Shown in pieces: positions 9,847 to 27,009 of a DNA stretch of 34,836 nt. The stretch spans positions 1 to 34,836 of the forward strand of contig CAYNTZ010000002.1 of NCBI GenBank assembly GCA_964400365.1. The letters run 5' to 3'. The notes under the pieces are model-generated. The model was not told the DNA's origin. It saw only the letters and a program-made list of their open reading frames with translations, and ran no database searches. Both the position numbers and the translations under genes were made by a program. The stretch is from an uncultured Planctomycetales bacterium. GTDB lineage: Bacteria > Omnitrophota > Gorgyraeia > Zapsychrales > Fredricksoniimonadaceae. Each line of letters opens with the position of its first letter. The stretch's first letter is position 1.

Positions 9847-12375
9847 TTAAGGACAGATAATTCCAGTATTACAGGTAACGGTATTAACCGGTGCTGCACC
9901 ACTACACTGACCAGGGGCAGGTTGGCCTAAGGTTGTATTAACGCAGGTCATAGTTTCAGTTTGTGTGCCTTGGAGTTGGCCACTTTGGCAGACACCAGTT
10001 GATGTGCAGGTGCTAAAACTGCCGCTTCCCTGCCAAGCAAAGGCACATCCGCTATAATCACTGCAACCTTGTGATTCAATGGGTCTATTAGGTTGAGCAG
10101 GGCATTTACTAGTATCAGGGTCGAACACGTTGTTGGTTGCTTCATAACAACGGTAGGTGCGGGTTTGTGTGCTTGTTCCGCAATTAGTGTTACACGCTCC
10201 ATAATTAGGTGCAGGGCTTTCCCAGCGATAAGAACATGCATTTGTACAGACCTGAGATGTTGCTGGTGGAGGTTGAGGGCAAAAACTTGGATCCACAGGA
10301 GGACATTCACATACTTCTTCTTGGGTAATGGGATCAATAAAGCAAATTCTGGAATTTGAATCACAAACCCCAGGGATACATTCTACCGTACGGGTAAGGG
10401 TTAGGTTGCACGCTGTTGGCGGGCAAATAAAATTATTTGCTTTCCACGTGTAGGTGCCGCGGCAGGTTGCGGAACAATCACTGACTGTAATGGTTCCTGT
10501 ATTATTGTTACAGCCACAGCTATCAATTCCTGTATTTTTAGGGTCAACGCAGGTATTGCCATCCAAACCTTGTAAATAGGTACAACGTTTGTTTAGATTA
10601 AAGTTGCCACGGTCGCACTCTTCTCCAGTTTCTTGAATGCCGTTTCCGCAGGCATTTTTGACTTTGCAAGCATTATCGCATGTTTGATCAGGGGCGCCAT
10701 TTTTGTTTATACCTAAATCACATTCTTCTATAATTCGCCCTGCATTGGTTGCTGGATCAGTAAGGACACAGCCAATGGTGTTGCCAGCGGTATAGGTACA
10801 TAATGGTGAATTAATTATTCCATCCCCACAAGTTGCTGGAGCAGCAGTACATGATGCGCTGCAAGAGGCAGTGCGTTTACTTTCATCAATGCGGCCGTTG
10901 GGTTGACACCCTTCGATATTACCCGGTACATAGGTGCATGATTCCCCTTGCCCACGTGTCCAACCTTGATCACAATCTTCTTCGGATTCTCGAATACCGT
11001 TACCACATCGGTCGCAACCCTCACATTGCACTGACGTGATGTAAGTTCTATTTTTATTTCCATCCCCTTGCCAGTATCCGCAACGAGCGGAATCTGTGCT
11101 ACAACCAGGGACATTTAAATAAGAACAGCAAAATGGAGCGCTGAAGCCAGAAGAATCAGTAGAGCCATTATTCCATTTATAATTAGGGTGTCTATGCCTC
11201 CATCTCTGTGTTCCATGGCTTATAGCTTTCTCAAAGCCGCTTTCGTAGCACATGCGATTAGCGCTTGTCATGTTAGGCGTGGCGGAACATCCACCACTAC
11301 AAGGGCGTATTGAAGTAGGAGGACCAGTTATTTTTAAACAATCTTGGGGGCATGCTGTGGCATTAACGGTAATCGTCCTAGAAGGACTTCCTGGAATTGT
11401 AAGGGTAATTGGTTTAGCTTCACACGATTCATAATAACCATCATTACGATCGTTTGGATTATTAGGATCATCAAATTCACAAATACCATTGCCGCAACGG
11501 GTGCAGGTCGTGCTATTTTGATTTGCCACATAGGGCAAATTACATTGGATTTCACATTTAAGCGTATCAGTACAGGCAGAAGCACCATTAACAAATTGAA
11601 TGCCTTGGTCTTGAGGGAGATTATAATCATCTCGTATCCCATTACTGCTAAGACATATTTCAGCAATAGGGTGACCTGGATTTGGTTCTGGAGGGATATT
11701 GCCTTGAGGTATGGTCCCTAAGCAAATAGCCGAACAGCTGGGGTCATCATCGTCGCTGGATTCATTGGCATTTGGGTTTGTTGCTGCGCCAGCACGGTCA
11801 AATTCACGCCCAAAGGTATCAACAATACAGCCGATGACAGCGGGGGCTCCGTTGCCGCAGCTTTCAACAATTTCACGTTCCCCGTAATAACAGCCGTTGA
11901 GGGACGAATCAAGGGCAACAGGGGTATAGACAGTAGCCCCTTTGAATTTTTTCCCTGTAGAAGTACGGTTGTTGGCATCATCATCACGGATTTTTCTCCC
12001 GCAATTGCCCCGCACCGCAGGCAGGCAGCAGCTGTTATCAACGATGCATTGTTCTGAAATATAACAGCCGGGGGGATTAAAGTTAAAGTAATGGTAGCGT
12101 TCATTTTCTCGGCAGGTAACGGTTTTGCCTTTTACAGGGCCGCAGGAACCTGCGATATCGGTGACAACGGCGCAGTTGGGGGGCAATTCAACCTGTTCGG
12201 CCGGCACTTGTTTCAGTCGGTCGTTGAAAGAATCCTGCACCTGGTCATCCCACATCTTAAAATGCCCGTTGACCGAACGCAGGACATAGGGCCCCATCAC
12301 CACCACCCCTAACACAACCAGGATGGCAATAATGGAATATTCGATAATGGACTGGCCTTGTTTATTGCGTAGCAT
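9847..12375 (-). CDS. Giant cysteine-rich surface protein with a Flp/Tad-type prepilin-like N-terminus
   Basis: The N-terminus MLRNKQG/QSIIEYSIIAILVVLGVVVMG is a short basic leader, a Gly, xxxIEY and a hydrophobic helix. The remaining ~800 aa hold about 74 Cys by my hand count. They include four CG(N/D)G..E(E/D)CD repeats (RCGNGICEF, RCGNGIRESEEDCDQG, TCGDGII..IEECDLG, ACGNGIQETGEECDRG). C-terminal TSP1-like modules are also present (YRWESPAPNYGACNTNCGTSTQTRTYRC, FAWQGSGSFSTCTSTGVC..). Confidence 0.8.
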   Translation of the reverse strand: MLRNKQGQSIIEYSIIAILVVLGVVVMGPYVLRSVNGHFKMWDDQVQDSFNDRLKQVPAEQVELPPNCAVVTDIAGSCGPVKGKTVTCRENERYHYFNFNPPGCYISEQCIVDNSCCLPAVRGNCGRKIRDDDANNRTSTGKKFKGATVYTPVALDSSLNGCYYGEREIVESCGNGAPAVIGCIVDTFGREFDRAGAATNPNANESSDDDDPSCSAICLGTIPQGNIPPEPNPGHPIAEICLSSNGIRDDYNLPQDQGIQFVNGASACTDTLKCEIQCNLPYVANQNSTTCTRCGNGICEFDDPNNPNDRNDGYYESCEAKPITLTIPGSPSRTITVNATACPQDCLKITGPPTSIRPCSGGCSATPNMTSANRMCYESGFEKAISHGTQRWRHRHPNYKWNNGSTDSSGFSAPFCCSYLNVPGCSTDSARCGYWQGDGNKNRTYITSVQCEGCDRCGNGIRESEEDCDQGWTRGQGESCTYVPGNIEGCQPNGRIDESKRTASCSASCTAAPATCGDGIINSPLCTYTAGNTIGCVLTDPATNAGRIIEECDLGINKNGAPDQTCDNACKVKNACGNGIQETGEECDRGNFNLNKRCTYLQGLDGNTCVDPKNTGIDSCGCNNNTGTITVSDCSATCRGTYTWKANNFICPPTACNLTLTRTVECIPGVCDSNSRICFIDPITQEEVCECPPVDPSFCPQPPPATSQVCTNACSYRWESPAPNYGACNTNCGTSTQTRTYRCYEATNNVFDPDTSKCPAQPNRPIESQGCSDYSGCAFAWQGSGSFSTCTSTGVCQSGQLQGTQTETMTCVNTTLGQPAPGQCSGAAPVNTVTCNTGIICP

Positions 12376-12382
12376 TACTGAA

Positions 12383-12411
12383 AGTATATAACATTAGTCA
12401 GCACAAGGCAA
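12383..12411 (-). promoter_or_regulatory. Candidate promoter giving a leaderless or near-leaderless transcript of the Cys-rich gene
   Basis: On the - strand, TTGCCT, a 17-nt spacer and TATACT are followed by only 7 nt before the ATG. No Shine-Dalgarno sequence is present. Confidence 0.3.
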
Positions 12412-12430: not shown

Positions 12431-13384
12431 ATGATGAGCCAGAAGGGTATTCCTTCGTTATTTCTTGAACGTTTAGCCCAAATTGTGCCGCTGCCCCAAC
12501 AGGCAATAGGTGATTTTTCATTTAGGGCTAAACAAAAAACAGCTTTTAGGGTTAACACCCTTAAGGTTTCTATCGACGAAGTACATGGGCTATTGAGGGA
12601 AGAGGGCATTACCTTTGATGCCGTGCCCTGGTATGCGCCGGCATTTTTAGTTGAAACGGGTGCGGCAAAACTGTTATTGCAACATGCCTTGGCGGCTGAA
12701 GGCAAGATTTATGCCCAGGCGCTTTCTAGTATGGTCCCGGCGGTGGTTTTAGATCCACAACCAGGCGAGCGGGTGCTAGACCTGTGCGCGGCCCCCGGGA
12801 GCAAGACAACCCAGATAGCCGCGCATATGCATAATGAAGGGCAGCTCATCGCCAATGAGGCGATTAAGGCGCGGTTTTTCCGGTTAAAGGCGGTTACGGC
12901 GCTTTTAGGGGCCAAGGCCCGTTTAACCATGGTGGATGGCAGGCGTTATGCCTTACGGGAAGACGAGCCGCCTTTTGACCGCATCTTAGTTGACGCACCT
13001 TGTTCATCCGAGGGGCGGTTTAATGCAGAAGACCCTGACTCCGTCGGTTATTGGAGCAAGCGTAAGATTGAAGAGATGTCCCATAAGCAAAAAGGGCTAT
13101 TGCTGAATGCCGCACGCCTTTTAAAACCGGGGGGCATTTTAGTTTATGCCACCTGCACCTTTGCGCCGGAAGAGAATGAAGAAGTGGTGGATTGGTTTTT
13201 ACGCAAGTCGGATGGCCGTTTTTTCATAGAGCCGGTTGAGGTAAAGGGAATTGCGCGCTACCCTGCTTTAAATGCCTGGGGTAAACGTTGTTTTGCTCAA
13301 GGCATGGAGGCTTGCCTGCGTATTTTACCGGATAAGCAGATGGAAGGTTTTTTTGTGGCTTGTTTACGCTGCCGTGGCGCATGA
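12431..13384 (+). CDS. RNA cytosine-C5 methyltransferase, NOL1/NOP2/Sun (RsmB/RsmF-like) family
   Basis: The SAM-binding motif LDLCAAPGSKT and the catalytic Cys motifs DRILVDAPCSSEG and GGILVYATCT are present. Confidence 0.85.
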   Translation: MMSQKGIPSLFLERLAQIVPLPQQAIGDFSFRAKQKTAFRVNTLKVSIDEVHGLLREEGITFDAVPWYAPAFLVETGAAKLLLQHALAAEGKIYAQALSSMVPAVVLDPQPGERVLDLCAAPGSKTTQIAAHMHNEGQLIANEAIKARFFRLKAVTALLGAKARLTMVDGRRYALREDEPPFDRILVDAPCSSEGRFNAEDPDSVGYWSKRKIEEMSHKQKGLLLNAARLLKPGGILVYATCTFAPEENEEVVDWFLRKSDGRFFIEPVEVKGIARYPALNAWGKRCFAQGMEACLRILPDKQMEGFFVACLRCRGA

Positions 13385-13462
13385 AGTTATCCCCAAATAG
13401 ATGCTTGACCTTAAAGGTTTTTTATACGAGAATTACATAATTATTAATCCGGTATTTTTATA

Positions 13463-14194
13463 ATGACGACGAGTGCGGTAAAGAGAGTGATTTGTGCTAT
13501 CCTGCTTTTTCTTTGGGCGGCCATGGCGCCCGTTTGTGCCCAAAATGCAGAGATTCCAGTTGTTTCCGACGATGAGGTAAGCGTGCAGGAATCTTTAGGT
13601 GCTGAATTGACCGTCAATGTGGTGAGCCTTGTGCTTAACGCGGAACACCGTGATGGGGTTGATTGGAGTGCTATTGTTTCGGATTTCCATAGTGTTGCGC
13701 TTAAGAAACAAGATAATCCGGTTTGGGCGGACAAGAAATATAAGTTAAGTGTCGGTACGGTATCTATCGAGGATTACGCGGTCTTGTTGGAGGCCTTGGA
13801 TACCGTCGGGCAGATGAACCAAACGCCCTACCCGTCATTTAAGATTGGTTTAAATGAAGACAGGACCGAGGTATTAAGCGACGTCATTAGTTTAGGGGTG
13901 CAGATGACGCGCCAGCGCGGCGAAGATGCCCTGTTAACCGTCCAGCCTAATTTAAATTTAGCTAAGATGATGTTAAAGGCAAGGACACAGCTGCCTATTA
14001 AGGATAAGGTGACGATTGTTATCGGCGGGATATTCAGCGAGGAGGAAATAACCAAGATGCATAAGTTTCCCCTGCTGGGTGACCTGCCCCTGGTGGGCTT
14101 GGTTTTTAGGAGCCGTGGGCATTTAATTAAGAAAACAGAAACAGTCATTTTTTTAACAATCAATACAAATGAAATTCCCAATGAAGATTATTAA
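13463..14194 (+). CDS. Secretin-domain-only mini-protein with its own signal peptide
   Basis: The signal peptide is ..LLFLWAAMAPVCAQ. The body aligns to the secretin C-domain (GVDWS.. and the signature KFPLLGDLPLVGLVFRS...TETVIFLT). At only 243 aa, it has no N0-N3 periplasmic domains. Confidence 0.7.
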   Translation: MTTSAVKRVICAILLFLWAAMAPVCAQNAEIPVVSDDEVSVQESLGAELTVNVVSLVLNAEHRDGVDWSAIVSDFHSVALKKQDNPVWADKKYKLSVGTVSIEDYAVLLEALDTVGQMNQTPYPSFKIGLNEDRTEVLSDVISLGVQMTRQRGEDALLTVQPNLNLAKMMLKARTQLPIKDKVTIVIGGIFSEEEITKMHKFPLLGDLPLVGLVFRSRGHLIKKTETVIFLTINTNEIPNEDY

Positions 14195-15215
14195 CCATCT
14201 TGTTATGGCCATTGGTTTGGTTGTGCTGCTTCAAGGCTGCGGCGGCCGGCCCGTGCAGGTGCCACCGCCTGCGCCTGGTATTGCGTTAAAAGATATTTGC
14301 GCTAAGTATAATATGCAGTGGCAATGGGATGGGGTGACCCAGGTTGTCTTGTTGGAATATAAAAGCAATAAGGCAAAGGCCTTGGTGGGCAGCAATGTGG
14401 TGTTGCTGGGCAAGGAAAAGATATTTTTAAACGCGCCGTTGCGCAGGGTTAATAGCACGATTTATGTGCCGGAAGATTTTGAAGCCAAGGTGATTGGGCC
14501 TTTTGGGATAACCATTGGCAAGGCCGGGCTGGGGGATCCAGCGCAATCTAAGGTGAGGTCTGTTGTGATTGATGCTGGGCATGGGGGGAAGGATCCTGGG
14601 GCCCAGGGTGTCAGCGGGGTCTTGGAAAAAGATGTTGTCCTTGATATTTCTAAACGCTTAAAGCTATTGTTGGAGGAAGCGGGTCTGAAGGTAATCATGA
14701 CCCGGGAGAGCGATGTTTTTATCACCTTGCAGCAGCGCACTGAAATTGCCACTAAATCTAATGCTGATTTATTTGTCAGTGTGCATGCTAATTCCAACCC
14801 GTCCCGCAAGATGCAGGGGATTGAAGTTTATTATGTCAAGACAACGCATAAGAAGGATTTAGATGAAGAACAGCGCCAGAAAAATGAGAAATCTTTTGTG
14901 GCGCGTTTAAATGCGGACAATAATGCCAAGATGGTCAGTATTATCGCGGATATGCTTTACGCGTTTAAGGTGGGGGAGTCCAGCAAGATAGCGCAATCAA
15001 TGGTGCAGCGCATGTCGGGCCATGTGGATGCGCCTAATCGGGGGCATCGTTCCTGTCGTTTCTTTGTCGTGCGCAATACCTTGGTGCCCGCCGTCTTGGT
15101 TGAGACGGGTTTCTTGACCAACCGCCAGGAAGAAAAAAAATTGGGCACTGGTTCTTATCGCCAGAAACTAGCTGAATCCCTTGCGCGCAGTATCTTAGAT
15201 TATGCCTCCAATTAA
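14169..15215 (+). CDS. N-acetylmuramoyl-L-alanine amidase (Amidase_3, AmiA/B/C-like) lipoprotein
   Basis: The lipobox LLQGC is followed by an N-terminal beta-rich targeting domain. The catalytic motifs are VVIDAGHGGKDPGA, ADLFVSVHANS and VLVETGFLTN. It overlaps the mini-secretin gene by 26 nt. Confidence 0.85.
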   Translation: MKFPMKIINHLVMAIGLVVLLQGCGGRPVQVPPPAPGIALKDICAKYNMQWQWDGVTQVVLLEYKSNKAKALVGSNVVLLGKEKIFLNAPLRRVNSTIYVPEDFEAKVIGPFGITIGKAGLGDPAQSKVRSVVIDAGHGGKDPGAQGVSGVLEKDVVLDISKRLKLLLEEAGLKVIMTRESDVFITLQQRTEIATKSNADLFVSVHANSNPSRKMQGIEVYYVKTTHKKDLDEEQRQKNEKSFVARLNADNNAKMVSIIADMLYAFKVGESSKIAQSMVQRMSGHVDAPNRGHRSCRFFVVRNTLVPAVLVETGFLTNRQEEKKLGTGSYRQKLAESLARSILDYASN

Positions 15216-16020
15216 TGTGCCCAACAACGATTCGATTGGTGTCTTTGATTCCGGCTTAGGCGGATTGACCGTGGTTAAGGAATTAATCCATCATTTGCCT
15301 AATGAGCGCATTGTTTATTTTGGTGACACTGCCCGGGTGCCTTATGGGACAAAATCCAAGGAAACCATATTAAGGTATTCCAGGGAAATTGTTCAGGTCT
15401 TATTGAAGCGCCGGGTGAAATTAATTGTGGTGGCTTGTAATACTGCTTCGAGCTTGGCATTGGATGAATTAGTGGCGGAATTCAAGGTGCCGATTATCGG
15501 TGTTATTGAGCCAGGGGCGAAGAAAGCTGCGGCATCAACGCGTAATAATCGGGTTGGTATTATCGCCACATCGTCGACAATTAAAAGCGAGCGTTACGCC
15601 CAGGAGTTGCTTAAGGCCCGGAAAGACGTGCAGGTGTTTTCTAAAGCGTGCCCTTTATTTGTGCCCTTGGTTGAAGAAGGGTGGTTTGACCATGCTGTCA
15701 CCTACCAGGTGGCGCAAGAATATTTAGTTCAAATGAAAAAGAATAAGATAGACACGTTAATCTTAGGATGCACCCATTACCCCTTGCTTAAGGGGGTGTT
15801 GCATAATGTCATGGGTGCGCAGGTTAATTTGGTTGATTCAGCCCAGGAGGTGGCCTTGCAAGCCAAGGCCGTATTAATGGGCAAGGGCATGCTGCGCACG
15901 CAATTGGGGCCGGCAAAGCATACCTTTATGGTAAGTGATGAGCCCCAAGGTTTCCAACGGTTAGCCGTACGCTTTTTAGGCGGTGGCGTCAGGGAAGTAG
16001 AAAGGTATACCAATGTTTGA
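15202..16020 (+). CDS. murI: Glutamate racemase
   Basis: The motifs IGVFDSGLGGLTV, VVACNTAS and GCTHYPLL are present. Confidence 0.9.
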   Translation: MPPINVPNNDSIGVFDSGLGGLTVVKELIHHLPNERIVYFGDTARVPYGTKSKETILRYSREIVQVLLKRRVKLIVVACNTASSLALDELVAEFKVPIIGVIEPGAKKAAASTRNNRVGIIATSSTIKSERYAQELLKARKDVQVFSKACPLFVPLVEEGWFDHAVTYQVAQEYLVQMKKNKIDTLILGCTHYPLLKGVLHNVMGAQVNLVDSAQEVALQAKAVLMGKGMLRTQLGPAKHTFMVSDEPQGFQRLAVRFLGGGVREVERYTNV

Positions 16021-18207: not shown

Positions 18208-18924
18208 ATGAAACGCCACGACGGACGCAAACCAAATGAATTACGTAAGATTAAAGTGACTAAGAATTATTTAAAGGATCCAGAAGGTTCCTGCCTGATT
18301 GAATTTGGCGCAACCCGGGTGATTTGCACCGCTTCGGTCGAAGAGGGCGTACCCCCATTCTTAAAAGGCCAAGGCAAGGGTTGGGTCACGGCGGAATACG
18401 GCATGTTGCCCCGTTCAGTGACTAGCCGCATGCGCCGGGAAAAAGCGTCAGGCGGCCGCACTGAAGAAATCCAGCGTTTAGTTGGACGTTCCCTGCGGGC
18501 GATTGTTGATATGAGCCAATTAGGTGAGCGCACCATCAAGATTGATTGTGATGTGATCCAAGGCGATGGCGGCACACGCACCGCGTCCATTACCGGCGGG
18601 TTTATTGCACTAGCGGATGCCTTAAAATGGATGATGGATAAGGGGATGATTGCCCGCATACCGTTAAAAGACTCTATTGCGGCGATTTCTGTCGGTATTT
18701 CAAAGGGTGAACCGGTTTTGGATTTGGATTATATTGAAGATTCAAAAGCGGATGTTGATATGAATGTGGTGATGACGGGCAAGGGGCAATTTGTCGAGGT
18801 GCAAGGCACCGGCGAAGGCGGCACCTTTAGCAAGGAACAGATGGACAAGCTATTGGCCTTAGCGCAAAAGGGCATCAAGGAATTATTAGCCATCCAAAAA
18901 AAGAATTTACCGTATTTAAAATGA
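18208..18924 (+). CDS. rph: Ribonuclease PH
   Basis: It shows [16 protein letters not shown].., [15 protein letters not shown] and [18 protein letters not shown]. Confidence 0.95.
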
Positions 18925-19523
18925 TGATGAAAGAATTAATTGTCGCATCCCGCAATAGGGGCAAGGTTGGCGAGATTAAAGAGTTATTGGTGGGATTGCC
19001 CTATAAGGTAAGCTCGCTGTTGGACTATCCTGATTTACCTGATGTTGTCGAAGATGGTAAGACCTATAAGGAAAATGCCTTAAAGAAGGCCCGTGAGATT
19101 GCGTTATTAACCGGCAAGATGACTATGTCGGATGATTCCGGGCTTGAAGTAAAGGCGCTTAATAATGCGCCTGGCATCTATTCTGCCCGTTTTGCCGGCG
19201 AGGGCAAGAGCGAGAAGGATAAGAATAAGAAATTATTTGCGATGCTAAAAGATGTCCCTGCGGCACGCCGCCAAGCCCGTTACCGCTGCGTGATTGCCTT
19301 GGTTGACGGCCGGGGCCGGGAACTTGGGTGTGTGGAGGGTACCTGCAGCGGTTTTATCACCACCGAGGAGCGGGGTAGCAACGGTTTTGGATTTGACCCG
19401 CTGTTTTTACTTAAACGCTACAATAAAACCTTTGGCGAATTGCCCTCAAGCGTTAAACAACGCATTTCCCACCGGGCCCGCGCGCTTCAGAAATTCCGTA
19501 TTAAAATAATGTCTTTAAAATAG
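18921..19523 (+). CDS. rdgB: Non-canonical purine NTP pyrophosphatase (HAM1/RdgB)
   Basis: It shows [33 protein letters not shown] and SHRARAL. Confidence 0.9.
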
Positions 19524-22500
19524 AGTTGATGACCTGCGGGACTGAGATTTTCTTGTCGAATTTAGGGTCGCTGACCTTCCCATAAATATGGATACTTAAG
19601 GTGCGCAAGACTTCTTCGGCGATTGGCGGCACCAGCCCTGAGCTCATGTCAACGCCCATGGTTAAATCGCAATCCTGGTTAAAATTAACCCAGCCTTGGC
19701 CTAAGAGGACAATGGTGGGGCTCTTTAAGCGCAGGTTATCTGTTGATATTTTCTGATTTACCAGGACAAAATTAGCTTCTACGTCGGTGATCATGACCTG
19801 GCCTAGGCGCAGGGCTTCGTTAAGTGCGCCTAATAATCCTTTGAATATTTTAAATTCAGTTAAAAATCCCTCGCGGATGGCCAAGGTGCCTTTGGCTTGT
19901 AGGGTTTTCATATCAGCGATGCGCCCGTTGGCGATGGTGGTTAAATAAAATTTACCGTTAATTTCTTCAGCCTTAAGCGGGGAATCCATTTTTAATTTCT
20001 TCATATCAACTTCATCAATGTTAAGGGCAAGCTCAAAAGGCATGGAATCAACGCTTAAATCAGTTGAGGCAACCGCATGCACCTTGCCGCCGTATAAGGA
20101 GGCGTTGAGCGTCAGGTTCTTTATTTTTTGTTCAGATTCAATCGCGCTAACTGACAGGTCGGTTAGCGTATAGCCCATCATTGAGACCGATGGGCTGGTG
20201 GCGGTGGCATTTAATGTCCAGTTTTTCCAATCAGCGGCGGGACCTTTCATGTCGGCATTGATGTTTATATTGCCTGTTGGTTTAAGCGGCAAGATAGCCT
20301 TCTGCTGCTCTTGGGGAAGCAGGTTGAGGATGTCTTCGATTTGGAAGGTTATGTTATTTTTTAGGTCAAGTATTTGTTGGCTGCCGGCTAGGGTGACGCT
20401 GCCCTTGGTGTCAAAGGCAATATTAAGGTATTTGCCTTTTAAGGTGTTGATGCTGATTAAGTCACCCTCCTTGGCGATATCTGCTTTTAATTGTACTTGG
20501 GCACCGTCTAGACTGGTGGTGACCTTGGGGTTATTGAAATCGTTTAATCCGCCGGTTAAGGTGTAGGCTTGCCCTAAATAGGTGGCGGTAAAATCACGCC
20601 ATTTGAGCGTGTCAGGAGTGGCTTCGATGACACCGGTAATATCTTTTATTTTTTGGTTAAAGGTGCTGCTGGCGATATTAACATCCTTTAGGCTGGCTAC
20701 GGCTAAGATCTTGCCATCCAGGGGCGATAAGGCCATTCCATCGAACTTTACTTTTACCGAAGCGATTCCATCCATGTCCAGCCCATATTGTTTGATTAGG
20801 TCAGGGATGATTTCTTTGACGCGGGCAAGGTTTAAGTCATTGGCTTCAGCCGTCATGCTGATAAGCGGGTTTTTAAAATTACTAATGCTCCCGTTAGCGC
20901 GTAAATCCGTGTCCAGGATATTAATGGTAATAGCATTAATGGTAGCGGCATCGGTTTTAAAATCAGCGTCTAATTCAATACCCTTGATTAAGTCCGTCAT
21001 GGGGAAACCTTTGACATGGGCATCGCTGACTGTAATCGACCCGCTATAGGTCAAGGCGGCAGGATCCTTTAGGGGTAAGGTTATGTTTATGTCGATACGG
21101 GGACTGGCATCTACAACCTTATTACCACCCAAATCAAGGCGGCCGTTGGTGATGCTTGTTTCTGTGGATAGTTTAAGGATGCCGTCGATAACTTTAAGTA
21201 ACACTGTTTTTGCTTTAATATTAGCGGAAGCATTAATATTCTGATCTAAGTCGATAGTCATGTCATCGATGCTTAGTTTAGTTGAGAGGGTAATATCTTG
21301 CTTATTGGTTAAGCTAAGCTGGGTATCTTGGGCGGTGATATGGCCGCTGAAGGATTTAGTGGCATCAAGGGCAGCTTTAACATGATCAGCGTTTAAGTCA
21401 CCTTGCACCTCAATATGGTTTTCATCGCTCATGCGCACGGTCAGTGGTTTTAAGGTGATGTCGCCTTTCAGGGTTTGATTAAGCCAGGTGATATCTAGTG
21501 ACTTGCCGATGATGGATCCAACTAGTTGAGAGCCGTCCTTATCTTTACGTATTTTGATATTATCTAGGGATAATTGCCCCTTAATGATTTGGTTGTCAGA
21601 TAATTTAATGTAAATAGATTCGGCAATGGTCGAACCTTCATAGTTAATTAAATCTTTGGTGGTTGTCAGGTCGCTGATTTTGCCTTTTAAGTGGCCGGAG
21701 GCTGTAAGGGTGGGGGTGGTGATGTCTAGGTTTGTTAAATTAAAATCACCTTTGGCCTTAATCGGCCCGTTTGACCATTCGGCATCGAGGCCGGCAATGT
21801 CAATGTTACCTTTAAGGTAGTGTTCATTGGCATTAAGGTTAATTTGGTTGATGGTGATATTACCTTGGGCAGCGATACCTGTTTTGCCATAATCGATGGT
21901 TAGGTCTACTTTTTTGATAAGCCCGCTGTAAATTTTTAGGTTAGGGACAGCAACGAGTGACAAGTAGGCGCTGGTATCGATGTTTTTTAGTTCCAGGGTT
22001 GTGTGCAGGCTTTGATTTAAGGGTTGGTAGCTGCCCTTGGCCGCAAGATAGCCTTGGCGCTGCGGGATGCTACTGGTGAAATCGTAGTTGATGCCTTTAT
22101 GGGAGAGCGACATTTTTAAGTTAATAGCGTCAAAGAGTTCAGTCCAGGCCTTGTCCAATGAGACATCATCAACGCGCAACTGGCCATCGATGATATTGAC
22201 TGCTCCCAAGATAATGTTGAACGGGGATGGTTTTTCTTCAACAGCGGCGGGCGCTGGCTGAGCAGGGAGTAGGTCTGAGAAATTCCAAACATCTGGTCCA
22301 GTGCGGATTAAATGGGCTGAAGGGTGTTGTACGTTGACAAAGGGAATAGTGATTTGGTGCTGCTTGATGCCTGGGATAACGATGATGCCGAAGGTGACTC
22401 CTTCTGCTTGGGCAAAGACGTCGGTGGTTGAATCTTTTTGGTAGACCTTGATTTTGTCAATTATGAAACCTTTGACCCAACTAAAACGGATATTGCCAAT

Positions 22501-26610: not shown

Positions 26611-26640
26611 TTGTTAGGATTGAACGCCTTTAATAAAGAA
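26611..26640 (+). repeat. Degenerate partial copy of the tRNA-Arg D-arm/anticodon-stem/intron-start junction
   Basis: TTAGGATTGAACGCCTTTAATAAAGAA aligns by eye to TTGGATAGAGCAACAGCCTTCAATAAGGAG (26971-27000), with about 22 of 27 positions matching. Confidence 0.4.
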
Positions 26641-26643
26641 AAT

Positions 26644-26718
26644 GTCCCTGTAGCTCAGTTGCCTGTCTACCGACAGGTAGAGATACCTGCCTGCCGGCAG
26701 GCAGGGAGCAACAGCCTT
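26644..26718 (+). pseudogene. Disrupted duplicate of the tRNA-Arg 5' exon carrying a 44-nt palindromic insertion in the D-loop
   Basis: AATGTCCCTGTAGCTCAGTTG (26641-61) is identical to 26953-73. GAGCAACAGCCTT (26706-18) is identical to 26978-90. Between them, 44 nt (26662-26705) replace GATA. No matching 3' half follows. Confidence 0.65.
26662..26705. repeat. Two GC-rich palindromic hairpins (REP/MITE-like insert)
   Basis: The first is CCTGTC-TACC-GACAGG (26662-77). The second is the perfect 20-nt palindrome CCTGCCTGCCGGCAGGCAGG (26686-705). Confidence 0.6.
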
Positions 26719-27009
26719 ATGTATACAGTGTATGCGTTAAAGTCAGACAAAGATCAGCGAATATATGTGGGCATGTCACAGGATGTTTTAAAAAGGTTAA
26801 AAGAGCATAATAGGGGGCAAACCACATCAACGAAGCCATATAGACCTTGGAGAATTCTCCATGTTGAATATTTTAATACAAGACTTGAAGCTAGATTAAT
26901 TGAAAAGAAATGGAAGTCAGGGAGTGGTAAAGAATATCTAAAGAATTTGAATAATGTCCCTGTAGCTCAGTTGGATAGAGCAACAGCCTTCAATAAGGAG
27001 CCTTTATAG
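26719..27009 (+). CDS. Small GIY-YIG nuclease-domain protein (UPF0213/COG2827-like)
   Basis: MYTVYALKSDKDQRIYVGMSQDVLKRLKEHNRGQ..RPWRILHVEYFNTRLEARLIEKKWKSGSGKEYL matches the GIY..YVG..R..H..E GIY-YIG core. The ATG follows the duplicated exon end CCTT directly. The reading frame runs through the real tRNA-Arg 5' exon and stops 19 nt into the intron. Confidence 0.75.
   Translation: MYTVYALKSDKDQRIYVGMSQDVLKRLKEHNRGQTTSTKPYRPWRILHVEYFNTRLEARLIEKKWKSGSGKEYLKNLNNVPVAQLDRATAFNKEPL

Follow-up and report, generated by a model that had tools for sequence, protein, structure and literature searches.

The Omnitrophota are abundant, uncultured nanobacteria thought to be predators or parasites, and we know of no pilin or adhesin that has yet been pointed out for them. 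Tad and type IVa (T4a) pilus systems are widespread in the phylum, where a role in host attachment has been proposed (PMC10066038). Elsewhere, large modular minor pilins form functional tips of type IV pili (T4P); modular type IV pilins, with about 1,200 examples in InterPro, include PilB (vWA) and PilC (lectin) of Streptococcus sanguinis (PMC8179133). Large minor pilins of Tad pili also form functional tips in predators, as described for TadG and for KilN, which belongs to the Kil system of Myxococcus (PMC12075869), and CpaL of Caulobacter is a further large Tad tip minor pilin (PMC12607857). Here we analyze a gene at 9847..12375 on the minus strand of contig CAYNTZ010000002.1 (34,836 nucleotides, assembly GCA_964400365.1), deposited as an uncultured Planctomycetales bacterium and placed by GTDB in the Omnitrophota. 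The window referred to below is this entire 34.8-kb contig.

We think it probable that this gene encodes a modular type IV-filament pilin (adhesin) from a family specific to the Omnitrophota. Judging from its sequence, the protein would most likely be displayed on a pilus to grip other cells. The gene and its conserved N-terminal part, with positions in the protein given in amino acids (aa), comprise the following features:

9847..12375, minus strand: coding sequence of the modular pilin-like protein, 842 aa, with the ATG at 12375 and the stop codon at 9847..9849
12355..12375, minus strand: leader peptide MLRNKQG, aa 1-7, short and basic with a Gly at its end; predicted cleavage between G7 and Q8
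12211..12354, minus strand: pilin module (alpha-1), aa 8-55, with QSIIEY, a hydrophobic helix and the motif MGPYVLRSVN.HFK.WD..VQDS
11497..12210, minus strand: disulfide-rich, beta-rich head domain, aa 56-293, with 18 conserved Cys, defined by the family profile and an AlphaFold2 model

An earlier note on this DNA had quoted the N-terminus as MLRNKQG followed by QSIIEYSIIAILVVLGVVVMGPYVLRS, reading it as a short leader, a Gly cleavage site, IEY at +4 to +6, and a hydrophobic helix. These elements are all present exactly as quoted; the protein begins with MLRNKQG followed by QSIIEYSIIAILVVLGVVVMG, giving I+4, E+5, and Y+6 relative to the predicted cleavage site, and the motif MGPYVLRSVNAHFKLWD..VQDS comes after the conserved alpha-1 residues in the pilin module. 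The open reading frame (ORF) is intact and lies on the minus strand, which the note did not give. Because an in-frame TAA is found 7 codons 5' of the ATG at 12375, no start earlier than M1 is possible. In the public database the ORF is entered as P0001 (816 aa), called from Met27 onward and thus without the pilin signal.

Conservation across the family supports the idea that a prepilin-type (class III) signal of Flp/Tad flavour is joined to a very large disulfide-rich ectodomain. In family alignments of 32 to 65 members, Q+1 and E+5 (Q8 and E12) are invariant, residue -1 is G, or A in divergent members, and P+22 is near-invariant; S+2, G+21, Y at 30, and R at 33 are conserved as well. The leaders are basic and mostly 4-8 residues long, and the prepilin motif is present in 113 of 150 family representatives, far beyond what chance would be predicted to give. 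On these alignments, a Glu fixed five residues past a small residue, within a putative transmembrane helix, is the signature of a prepilin and not of a plain anchor.

To define the family, we searched 1.84 billion representative proteins (50% identity clusters) with a profile of aa 1-285 and retrieved 509 clusters at E<=1e-3, 355 of them at E<=1e-10. Members are 63-1162 aa long, typically 330-450 aa; the four first relatives, retrieved by a word-indexed search, align over aa 1-280 and diverge beyond. Gene context was collected from GTDB contigs, with one genome per species, yielding 25 loci. Most are titled Candidatus Omnitrophota, the rest 'uncultured Planctomycetales' or 'uncultured bacterium', with one Vampirovibrionales, and the window shares ten-gene synteny with Omnitrophota-titled loci, which identifies the contig as one from the Omnitrophota. 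The NCBI name for members is 'hypothetical protein', and we found no paper describing the family in the literature. By these searches, the window protein belongs to a family without annotation that is restricted to the Omnitrophota.

What the members have in common is the class III signal, the alpha-1 helix, and the 18-Cys head, while the C-terminal part is hypervariable. The tails of other members include Gly-rich tracts, a Hint domain, or CGDGxC repeats, and many carry differing long C-terminal extensions that bring the total length up to 1162 aa. Long poly-Gly or Gly-rich modules occur in P0062, P0076, P0112, and P0117. A Hint (Hedgehog/intein-like) domain ends some members, including P0005 (aa ~370-520; precomputed PF05203) and P0031, both of which contain the motif C[FL]..GT.V.L.NG; its presence suggests that the C-terminal part may be released or ligated by autoproteolysis.

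The neighborhood of the family gene points in the same direction. The gene stands beside type IV-filament machinery in at least 20 of 26 loci. Pfam bore out the earlier note's statement that the window has no tad/cpa genes; the note had, however, overlooked a secretin-family gene 1.1 kb from the family gene. The neighboring genes in the window and the three recurrent gene contexts are as follows:

12431..13384, plus strand: RsmB/F-like methyltransferase gene, divergent from the family gene; conserved partner in context A
13463..14194, plus strand: short secretin-family gene, 243 aa, with a signal peptide; Pfam Secretin E 3.5e-14
Context A, the window and 6 species: family gene divergent from the RsmB-like methyltransferase, then the short secretin, an AmiC-type amidase, Glu racemase, and queDCEF
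Context B, 8 species: pilM-pilN-pilO-(114 aa)-pilQ run divergently from the family gene, on whose other side lie pilC and as many as three MshEN/PilB-type ATPases
Context C, loci L022 and L028: family gene, SurA-like peptidyl-prolyl isomerase, RcpC/CpaB, CpaC-type secretin, and a TadZ-CpaF fusion

The link to pilus genes is not exclusive to Tad, since eight related genomes have pilMNOPQ and pilB/pilC alongside the family gene. In the two context C loci, which are Tad operons, distant family members take the flp position; the TadZ-CpaF fusion is followed by DUF192, further genes, and then short Flp pilins. At another locus, L026, the family gene comes after a pseudopilin, GspK, and a PilM/N fusion in a cluster resembling a type II secretion system (T2SS). 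The RsmB/F-like methyltransferase is probably unrelated in function to the family gene.

The short secretin (240-270 aa) adjoins the family gene in seven species (the window, L005, L007, L009, L010, L011, and L015), always followed by an AmiC-type N-acetylmuramoyl-L-alanine amidase; in the window the pair spans 13463..15215 on the plus strand. Of the secretin domain it keeps roughly the final third alone (profile positions 100-164 of 169), and it shares a BLAST cluster with full-length PilQ/CpaC secretins that stand beside other family members. The Tad-like operons, L022 10001..17700 and L028 6086..13200, encode a 722-aa fusion of TadZ (a ParA-like ATPase) to CpaF/TadA; the SurA-like peptidyl-prolyl isomerase lies between the family gene and rcpC, and the GQSLIEY pilins are distal. 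The CpaC-type secretin of L022 bears two C-terminal TonB_C domains. At L011, a gene at 18786..19646 on the minus strand, 8 kb from the family gene, encodes 286 aa with eight transmembrane segments and the motifs DLRHQKIRN and PGDAKLF. With a Peptidase_A24 score of 26.4 bits (gathering threshold 26.5), it is a candidate TadV-type prepilin peptidase.

An AlphaFold2 model of the conserved part, computed with a 65-sequence alignment, has a mean predicted local distance difference test (pLDDT) score of 83.8. It consists of a single 44-residue helix at aa 8-51 (pLDDT ~88) and then a beta-rich domain. As modeled, this helix-plus-beta-domain arrangement is the pilin 'lollipop' layout, as in the type IV pilin superfamily. 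The head itself (aa 56-293) has no Pfam match, and a Foldseek search against PDB left it unmatched, with a best E of 0.9, TM at most 0.11, and pseudopilin matches at noise level only (E ~3 to 4).

By curated thresholds, the N-terminus as predicted is not Flp-type. The earlier note had proposed an HMM check for Flp_Fap (PF04964); this model gives 11.3 bits on the full protein and 17.0 bits on aa 1-62, both under its gathering threshold of 32.2, so membership was not borne out. The TadE/TadG models (PF07811, PF13400) did not match the window protein, and N_methyl (PF07963 / IPR012902) and Class_IIIsignal (PF04021) matched neither the window protein nor any of 32 family N-termini. Among these N-termini, Flp_Fap was the sole recurrent pilin model, matching 14, all below threshold, with a best E of 2e-4; TadE matched two, both sub-threshold. 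In NCBIfam the whole protein had no match and the N-termini gave nothing but noise, and the one match of the N-terminal profile in PDB was a chance one, to the transmembrane helix of Bak.

By resemblance and descent, the N-terminus is probably Flp-type. The family N-terminal profile aligns end to end with the 51-aa pilin of Tad locus L028 (hhalign 96.8%, E 2.5e-10). Flp-sized pilins beginning GQSLIEY are found at both L022 (47 aa, cut by the locus end) and L028 (51 aa), and the short pilin of L022 matches Flp_Fap at E 4.5e-6. A search with the 62-aa N-terminal profile, which is not a census, matched 10 short proteins, and a 63-aa fragment of one family member is labeled 'Flp pilus assembly pilin Flp' by JGI. 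The Flp assignment of the window protein, as predicted, is one of resemblance, not membership. Two other identities were rejected: an archaeal-type class III pilin acquired by transfer, because PF04021 is not matched and the family is confined to the Omnitrophota, and a TadE/TadG pseudopilin, because no such model matches. PF04021 is passed, at 28.1 bits, by a 73-aa pilin with a KKGQSxLEY start that lies beside the 51-aa pilin in L028.

Beyond the head, the window protein continues into a tail that is its own. The extension begins at aa 294 and consists of three parts:

11008..11496, minus strand: middle region, aa 294-456, with 14 Cys and a CGNGIC-type motif at its start; no known domain
10450..11007, minus strand: three DUF4215-like Cys-rich repeats (R1-R3), aa 457-515, 516-575, and 576-642, defined by internal alignment
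9850..10449, minus strand: three TSP1-like modules (T1-T3), aa 643-715, 716-777, and 778-842, defined by Cys spacing and TSP1_ADAMTS score

Among the top 150 representatives, this tail of ~550 aa (aa 294-842), with its DUF4215-like and TSP1-like modules, is peculiar to the window member. The nearest relatives, P0007 and P0026, are 53-58% identical over aa 1-293 and end at ~350 aa. Cys residues number exactly 74, as the earlier note had counted by hand, or 8.8% of the 842 residues; there are none in aa 1-60, 18 in aa 61-293, 14 in aa 294-456, 20 in aa 457-642, and 22 in aa 643-842. The note had taken the even number as consistent with complete disulfide bonding. This argument holds inside the window protein, where each segment and each proposed repeat or module has an even number, but not family-wide, where parity is uninformative (56 even vs 57 odd).

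The motif CG[ND]G is found five times, at aa 173, 294, 457, 516, and 576. Where four CG(N/D)G...E(E/D)CD repeats had been described, three true repeats of 59-67 aa stand (at 457, 516, and 576); the site at 294 is a different, CGNGIC-type motif. R1-R3 follow the pattern CG(N/D)GI..E(E/D)CD..CTY..C..C, each with an insertion of ~25 aa relative to the canonical repeat. In a search of 5.8e9 sequences, the R1-R3 region retrieved four PF13948-bearing proteins (E 9e-6 to 2e-3), and pairwise alignments with them have CGNG..EECD in common, with insertions. The suggested kinship to TIGR02232 / PF13948 was not upheld by the models themselves; PF13948 run directly on the repeats gave E=1.4 and 9.7 bits against a threshold of 27, and TIGR02232 (NCBIfam) had no match at E up to 10. 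The middle region (aa 294-456) has no match in Pfam.

Of the two or three thrombospondin type 1 modules that had been proposed, all three W-containing modules are present as quoted, but one alone has HMM support, and this is at threshold. The middle module, T2, matches the Pfam model TSP1_ADAMTS (PF19030) over aa 724-773 (nt 10057..10206), with 22.4 bits for the full protein and 25.3 bits (two stretches) for the fragment, the gathering score being 23.8. Its six Cys are spaced 3-10-14-12-5, which fits ADAMTS-type thrombospondin repeats, and its pattern is W-x9-C-x3-CG-x5-R-x3-C; T1 and T3 are degenerate. PF00090 (TSP_1) was unmatched by the window protein. Searches of PDB sequences gave no match for the TSP1-like region and, with phmmer, no meaningful match for the whole protein and two C-terminal fragments. 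AlphaFold2 run without an alignment on aa 639-842 gave an unusable model (pLDDT 38).

The start of the gene has a conserved arrangement of its own:

12383..12411, minus strand: sigma-70-like promoter, with TTGCCT at 12411..12406, a 17-nt spacer, and TATACT at 12388..12383

As the earlier note had observed, the promoter lies 7 nt from the ATG; a promoter scan and the sequence itself place the end of the -10 element TATACT at this distance, and there is no Shine-Dalgarno sequence. A motif cTTGC-N16-18-aTATACTTT is conserved 5' of the family gene in ~20 of 24 loci, 6 to 25 nt from the ATG, and in contexts A and B this promoter usually occurs without a Shine-Dalgarno sequence. Because a conserved promoter lies so close to the ATG, usually with no Shine-Dalgarno sequence, it is plausible that the mRNA is leaderless or near-leaderless. 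Among the top 150 representatives, 25 are called from an internal Met (M27 'MGPYV' or 'MIEY') with loss of the signal, P0001 among them, and we attribute these calls to leaderless starts that mislead gene callers.

Several gene groups lie near family members or in the window. In seven loci (L006, L011, L014, L015, L016, L017, and L019), a gene with an APH-like kinase fold lies directly downstream of the family gene on the same strand, and the same loci encode 2 to 4 paralogous radical-SAM/SPASM enzymes, a DUF2334 (polysaccharide-deacetylase-like) protein, and a GT28-type glycosyltransferase. The window lacks this set. Its products could act in modification or glycosylation of the Cys-rich pilin, or the genes may form a separate surface-glycan cluster. 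At L005 (the P0002 locus, the closest long relative), four genes at 12456..15981 on the minus strand, 0.5-4 kb from the family gene, encode proteins of 159 aa, 217 aa with an N_methyl-type signal (G, cleavage site, FSFVE), ~580 aa with DUF4900, and 215 aa; from their sequences, they look like a T4a/T2SS-type minor-pilin set. The matching position in the window holds CHASE2-SpoIIE, two STAS, response regulator, MASE1 kinase, and PAS-GAF-GGDEF genes. The region 26611..31304 of the window has low GC content (0.38 at 28-31 kb vs ~0.46 elsewhere) and encodes a GIY-YIG nuclease, a PD-(D/E)XK endonuclease, a Fic/DOC protein, a 351-aa ORF without a family match, and two small ORFs (97 and 76 aa) resembling a toxin-antitoxin pair. 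The region has the appearance of a small mobile or defence islet and is unrelated to the pilin.

A number of points weigh against reading the gene as a modular pilin. To our knowledge, 842 aa far exceeds any polymerizing major pilin. No pilin HMM passes its curated threshold on the window protein in Pfam, and NCBIfam is empty; the Foldseek search of PDB found no structural resemblance between the head and any solved pilin; and, by Pfam, the window contains no prepilin peptidase, ATPase, or platform gene, only a truncated-looking secretin. The machinery beside the gene is inconsistent across the family, being Tad-like, PilMNOPQ-like, or T2SS-like. The TSP1 and DUF4215 assignments made from the sequence are borderline, and cleavage, pilus incorporation, and ligand binding of the window protein are predictions. 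Size bears also on a different account, which we consider rather unlikely: that the family is the major structural pilin, polymerizing as the body of the filament with a Cys-rich head on every subunit and the C-terminus decorating the fibre. The gene is usually single-copy per locus, its strong near-consensus promoter is conserved over the family, and E+5 and P+22 are kept, as they are in major T4a pilins. In the eight pilMNOPQ/pilBC loci (context B), it occupies the expected pilA site, and no other pilin-like ORF lies within 10 kb on either side, a span beyond which canonical pilins may sit elsewhere in those genomes. Known major pilins, however, are mostly under 210 aa, whereas members of the family are typically 330-450 aa and the window protein is 842 aa; furthermore, L022 and L028 each have a distinct gene for an Flp-sized pilin (47-51 aa), which would be a more natural major subunit.

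We regard it as quite improbable that the protein is never incorporated into a pilus and instead acts through an uncleaved signal-anchor or a cleaved, pseudopilin-like stub, as an inner-membrane tether or part of a short T2SS-like endopilus, its Cys-rich domains then lying in the periplasm or on the cell surface. Such a role would suit the lack of a peptidase, ATPase, or platform gene in the window, the sub-threshold pilin scores, the T2SS-like cluster with GspK around one family member (L026), and the difficulty of passing so bulky a protein through a secretin. A plain anchor, however, would leave the invariance of the small residue at -1, Q+1, E+5, and P+22 unexplained; it is because the residues of the cleavage site are invariant that this role seems less likely. 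The placement of the gene, in at least 20 of 26 loci, beside genes for secretins and pilus assembly, the homology of the N-terminus to an Flp-sized pilin of a Tad operon, and the variable adhesin-type modules (TSP1-like and DUF4215-like), which make sense outside the cell, also argue for a pilus. That the ORF is decaying or chimeric, an assembly artefact or pseudogene joining a pilin gene to unrelated Cys-rich sequence, is very improbable indeed, even though the DUF4215-like and TSP1-like tail occurs in the window member alone among the top 150 representatives and the database gene call deviates from the full ORF. The frame is unbroken over 2.5 kb with the same GC content as the flanking sequence, every module has an even Cys count, many members have other long C-terminal extensions of their own (up to 1162 aa), and synteny with L005, L009, L010, and L011 is kept on both sides of the gene. 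An assembly chimera was rejected on the intact frame and this synteny.

If the protein is a modular pilin, as we favor, it would work as follows. The gene, with its strong conserved promoter, would be transcribed as a leaderless or near-leaderless mRNA, and the class III signal would insert the product into the inner membrane with its N-terminus in the cytoplasm and its C-terminus in the periplasm. An A24-family aspartic prepilin peptidase of the TadV/PilD type would remove MLRNKQG, leaving Gln as the new N-terminus, and the Cys-rich domains would be oxidized in the periplasm to form ~37 disulfides. The 44-residue hydrophobic alpha-1 helix would then dock in a Tad- or T4P-like filament by way of E+5 and the kink at P+22. 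This filament would be built by machinery of the kind encoded beside family members, as their gene context suggests, and extruded through the secretin. The conserved head (aa 56-293) would be the family's pilin globular domain, and the 550-aa tail the effector part, which would bind a ligand at the surface of a host cell, a prey cell, or a substrate. Because the subunit is so bulky, it would most probably be located at the filament tip or be of low abundance, for which TadG/KilN and PilB/PilC are precedents (PMC12075869, PMC8179133).

A bolder proposal, which we hold to be doubtful, extends this to the whole family. Its members would serve the host/prey-attachment pili of ultra-small Omnitrophota as their main filament subunit or their universal tip; they would be derived from Flp, with a new disulfide-rich head fold and hypervariable grafts that set host range; if so, these grafts would be TSP1-like and DUF4215-like here and Gly-rich, Hint-domain, or EGF-like elsewhere. 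Such a class would be invisible to pilin surveys, as leaderless starts would cause truncated gene calls in about one in six members. Across the phylum, the family provides a concrete candidate for the host-contacting part of the pilus, with a conserved carrier and swappable effector modules. It also carries a lesson for annotation: leaderless starts may lead gene callers to truncate N-termini systematically and so erase the signal.

Among known systems, Flp/Fap pilins (PF04964) start as the window protein does, with a short, basic, Gly-terminated leader, then xxxIEY (Glu at +5, Tyr at +6) and a hydrophobic helix. Weak recurrent Flp_Fap matches, homology to a Tad-operon pilin of the Omnitrophota, and the occupation by distant members of the flp slot, which precedes rcpC, the secretin, and tadZ/cpaF, strengthen the likeness. 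The differences are in size, with a mature window protein of 835 aa vs ~40-60 aa for Flp and a sub-threshold score; in the conserved globular Cys-rich head and the additional modules, neither of which Flp pilins possess; in the invariant Q+1 and conserved P+22 of the family; and in gene context, as most members adjoin pilMNOPQ-type genes or a lone secretin, not tad genes.

TadG, KilN, and CpaL resemble the window protein in having a prepilin-type N-terminus with a large modular C-terminal domain, a proposed tip location that gives prey or surface specificity, and occurrence in predatory or parasitic organisms. They have no sequence relationship to the window family, in which vWA and TadG-type domains are absent, a Cys-rich head of the family's own is conserved, and no adjacent tadE/tadF were seen. 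As for the grafts, T2 is like ADAMTS-type TSP1 (PF19030) in its spacing and scores at threshold, whereas T1 and T3 are degenerate and the WxxW layer motif is absent; R1-R3 are like DUF4215/Myxococcus repeats in their CGNG..E(E/D)CD pattern and in retrieving PF13948-bearing proteins, but differ by the ~25-residue insertion in each and by the failure of both PF13948 and TIGR02232.

The closest parallel in design is to modular pilins, in which a pilin module carries non-pilus grafts that are diverse among relatives and serve adhesion at the tip (PMC8179133). The same combination is found here, where aa 1-293 are conserved in 509 clusters and the tail, aa 294-842, is grafted. Modular pilins have the IPR012902/N_methyl motif (G, cleavage site, F/M..xE), which the window family never matches, and the survey that described them would therefore have missed this family; the grafts of the window protein are disulfide-rich repeats, DUF4215-like and TSP1-like. 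The earlier note had suggested a novel way to display an adhesin on a pilin, but the principle is known from modular pilins (PMC8179133) and from TadG/KilN tips (PMC12075869): adhesin modules grafted onto a pilin carrier and Tad tips that determine prey specificity both have precedents. What is new is the family itself, its Flp-like rather than N_methyl-type carrier, its Cys-rich head unmatched among solved structures, its restriction to the Omnitrophota, and, in the window member, a tail of exceptional length that bears TSP1-like and DUF4215-like repeats. The 'modular pilin' concept would thus be widened from N_methyl-type to Flp-like pilins.

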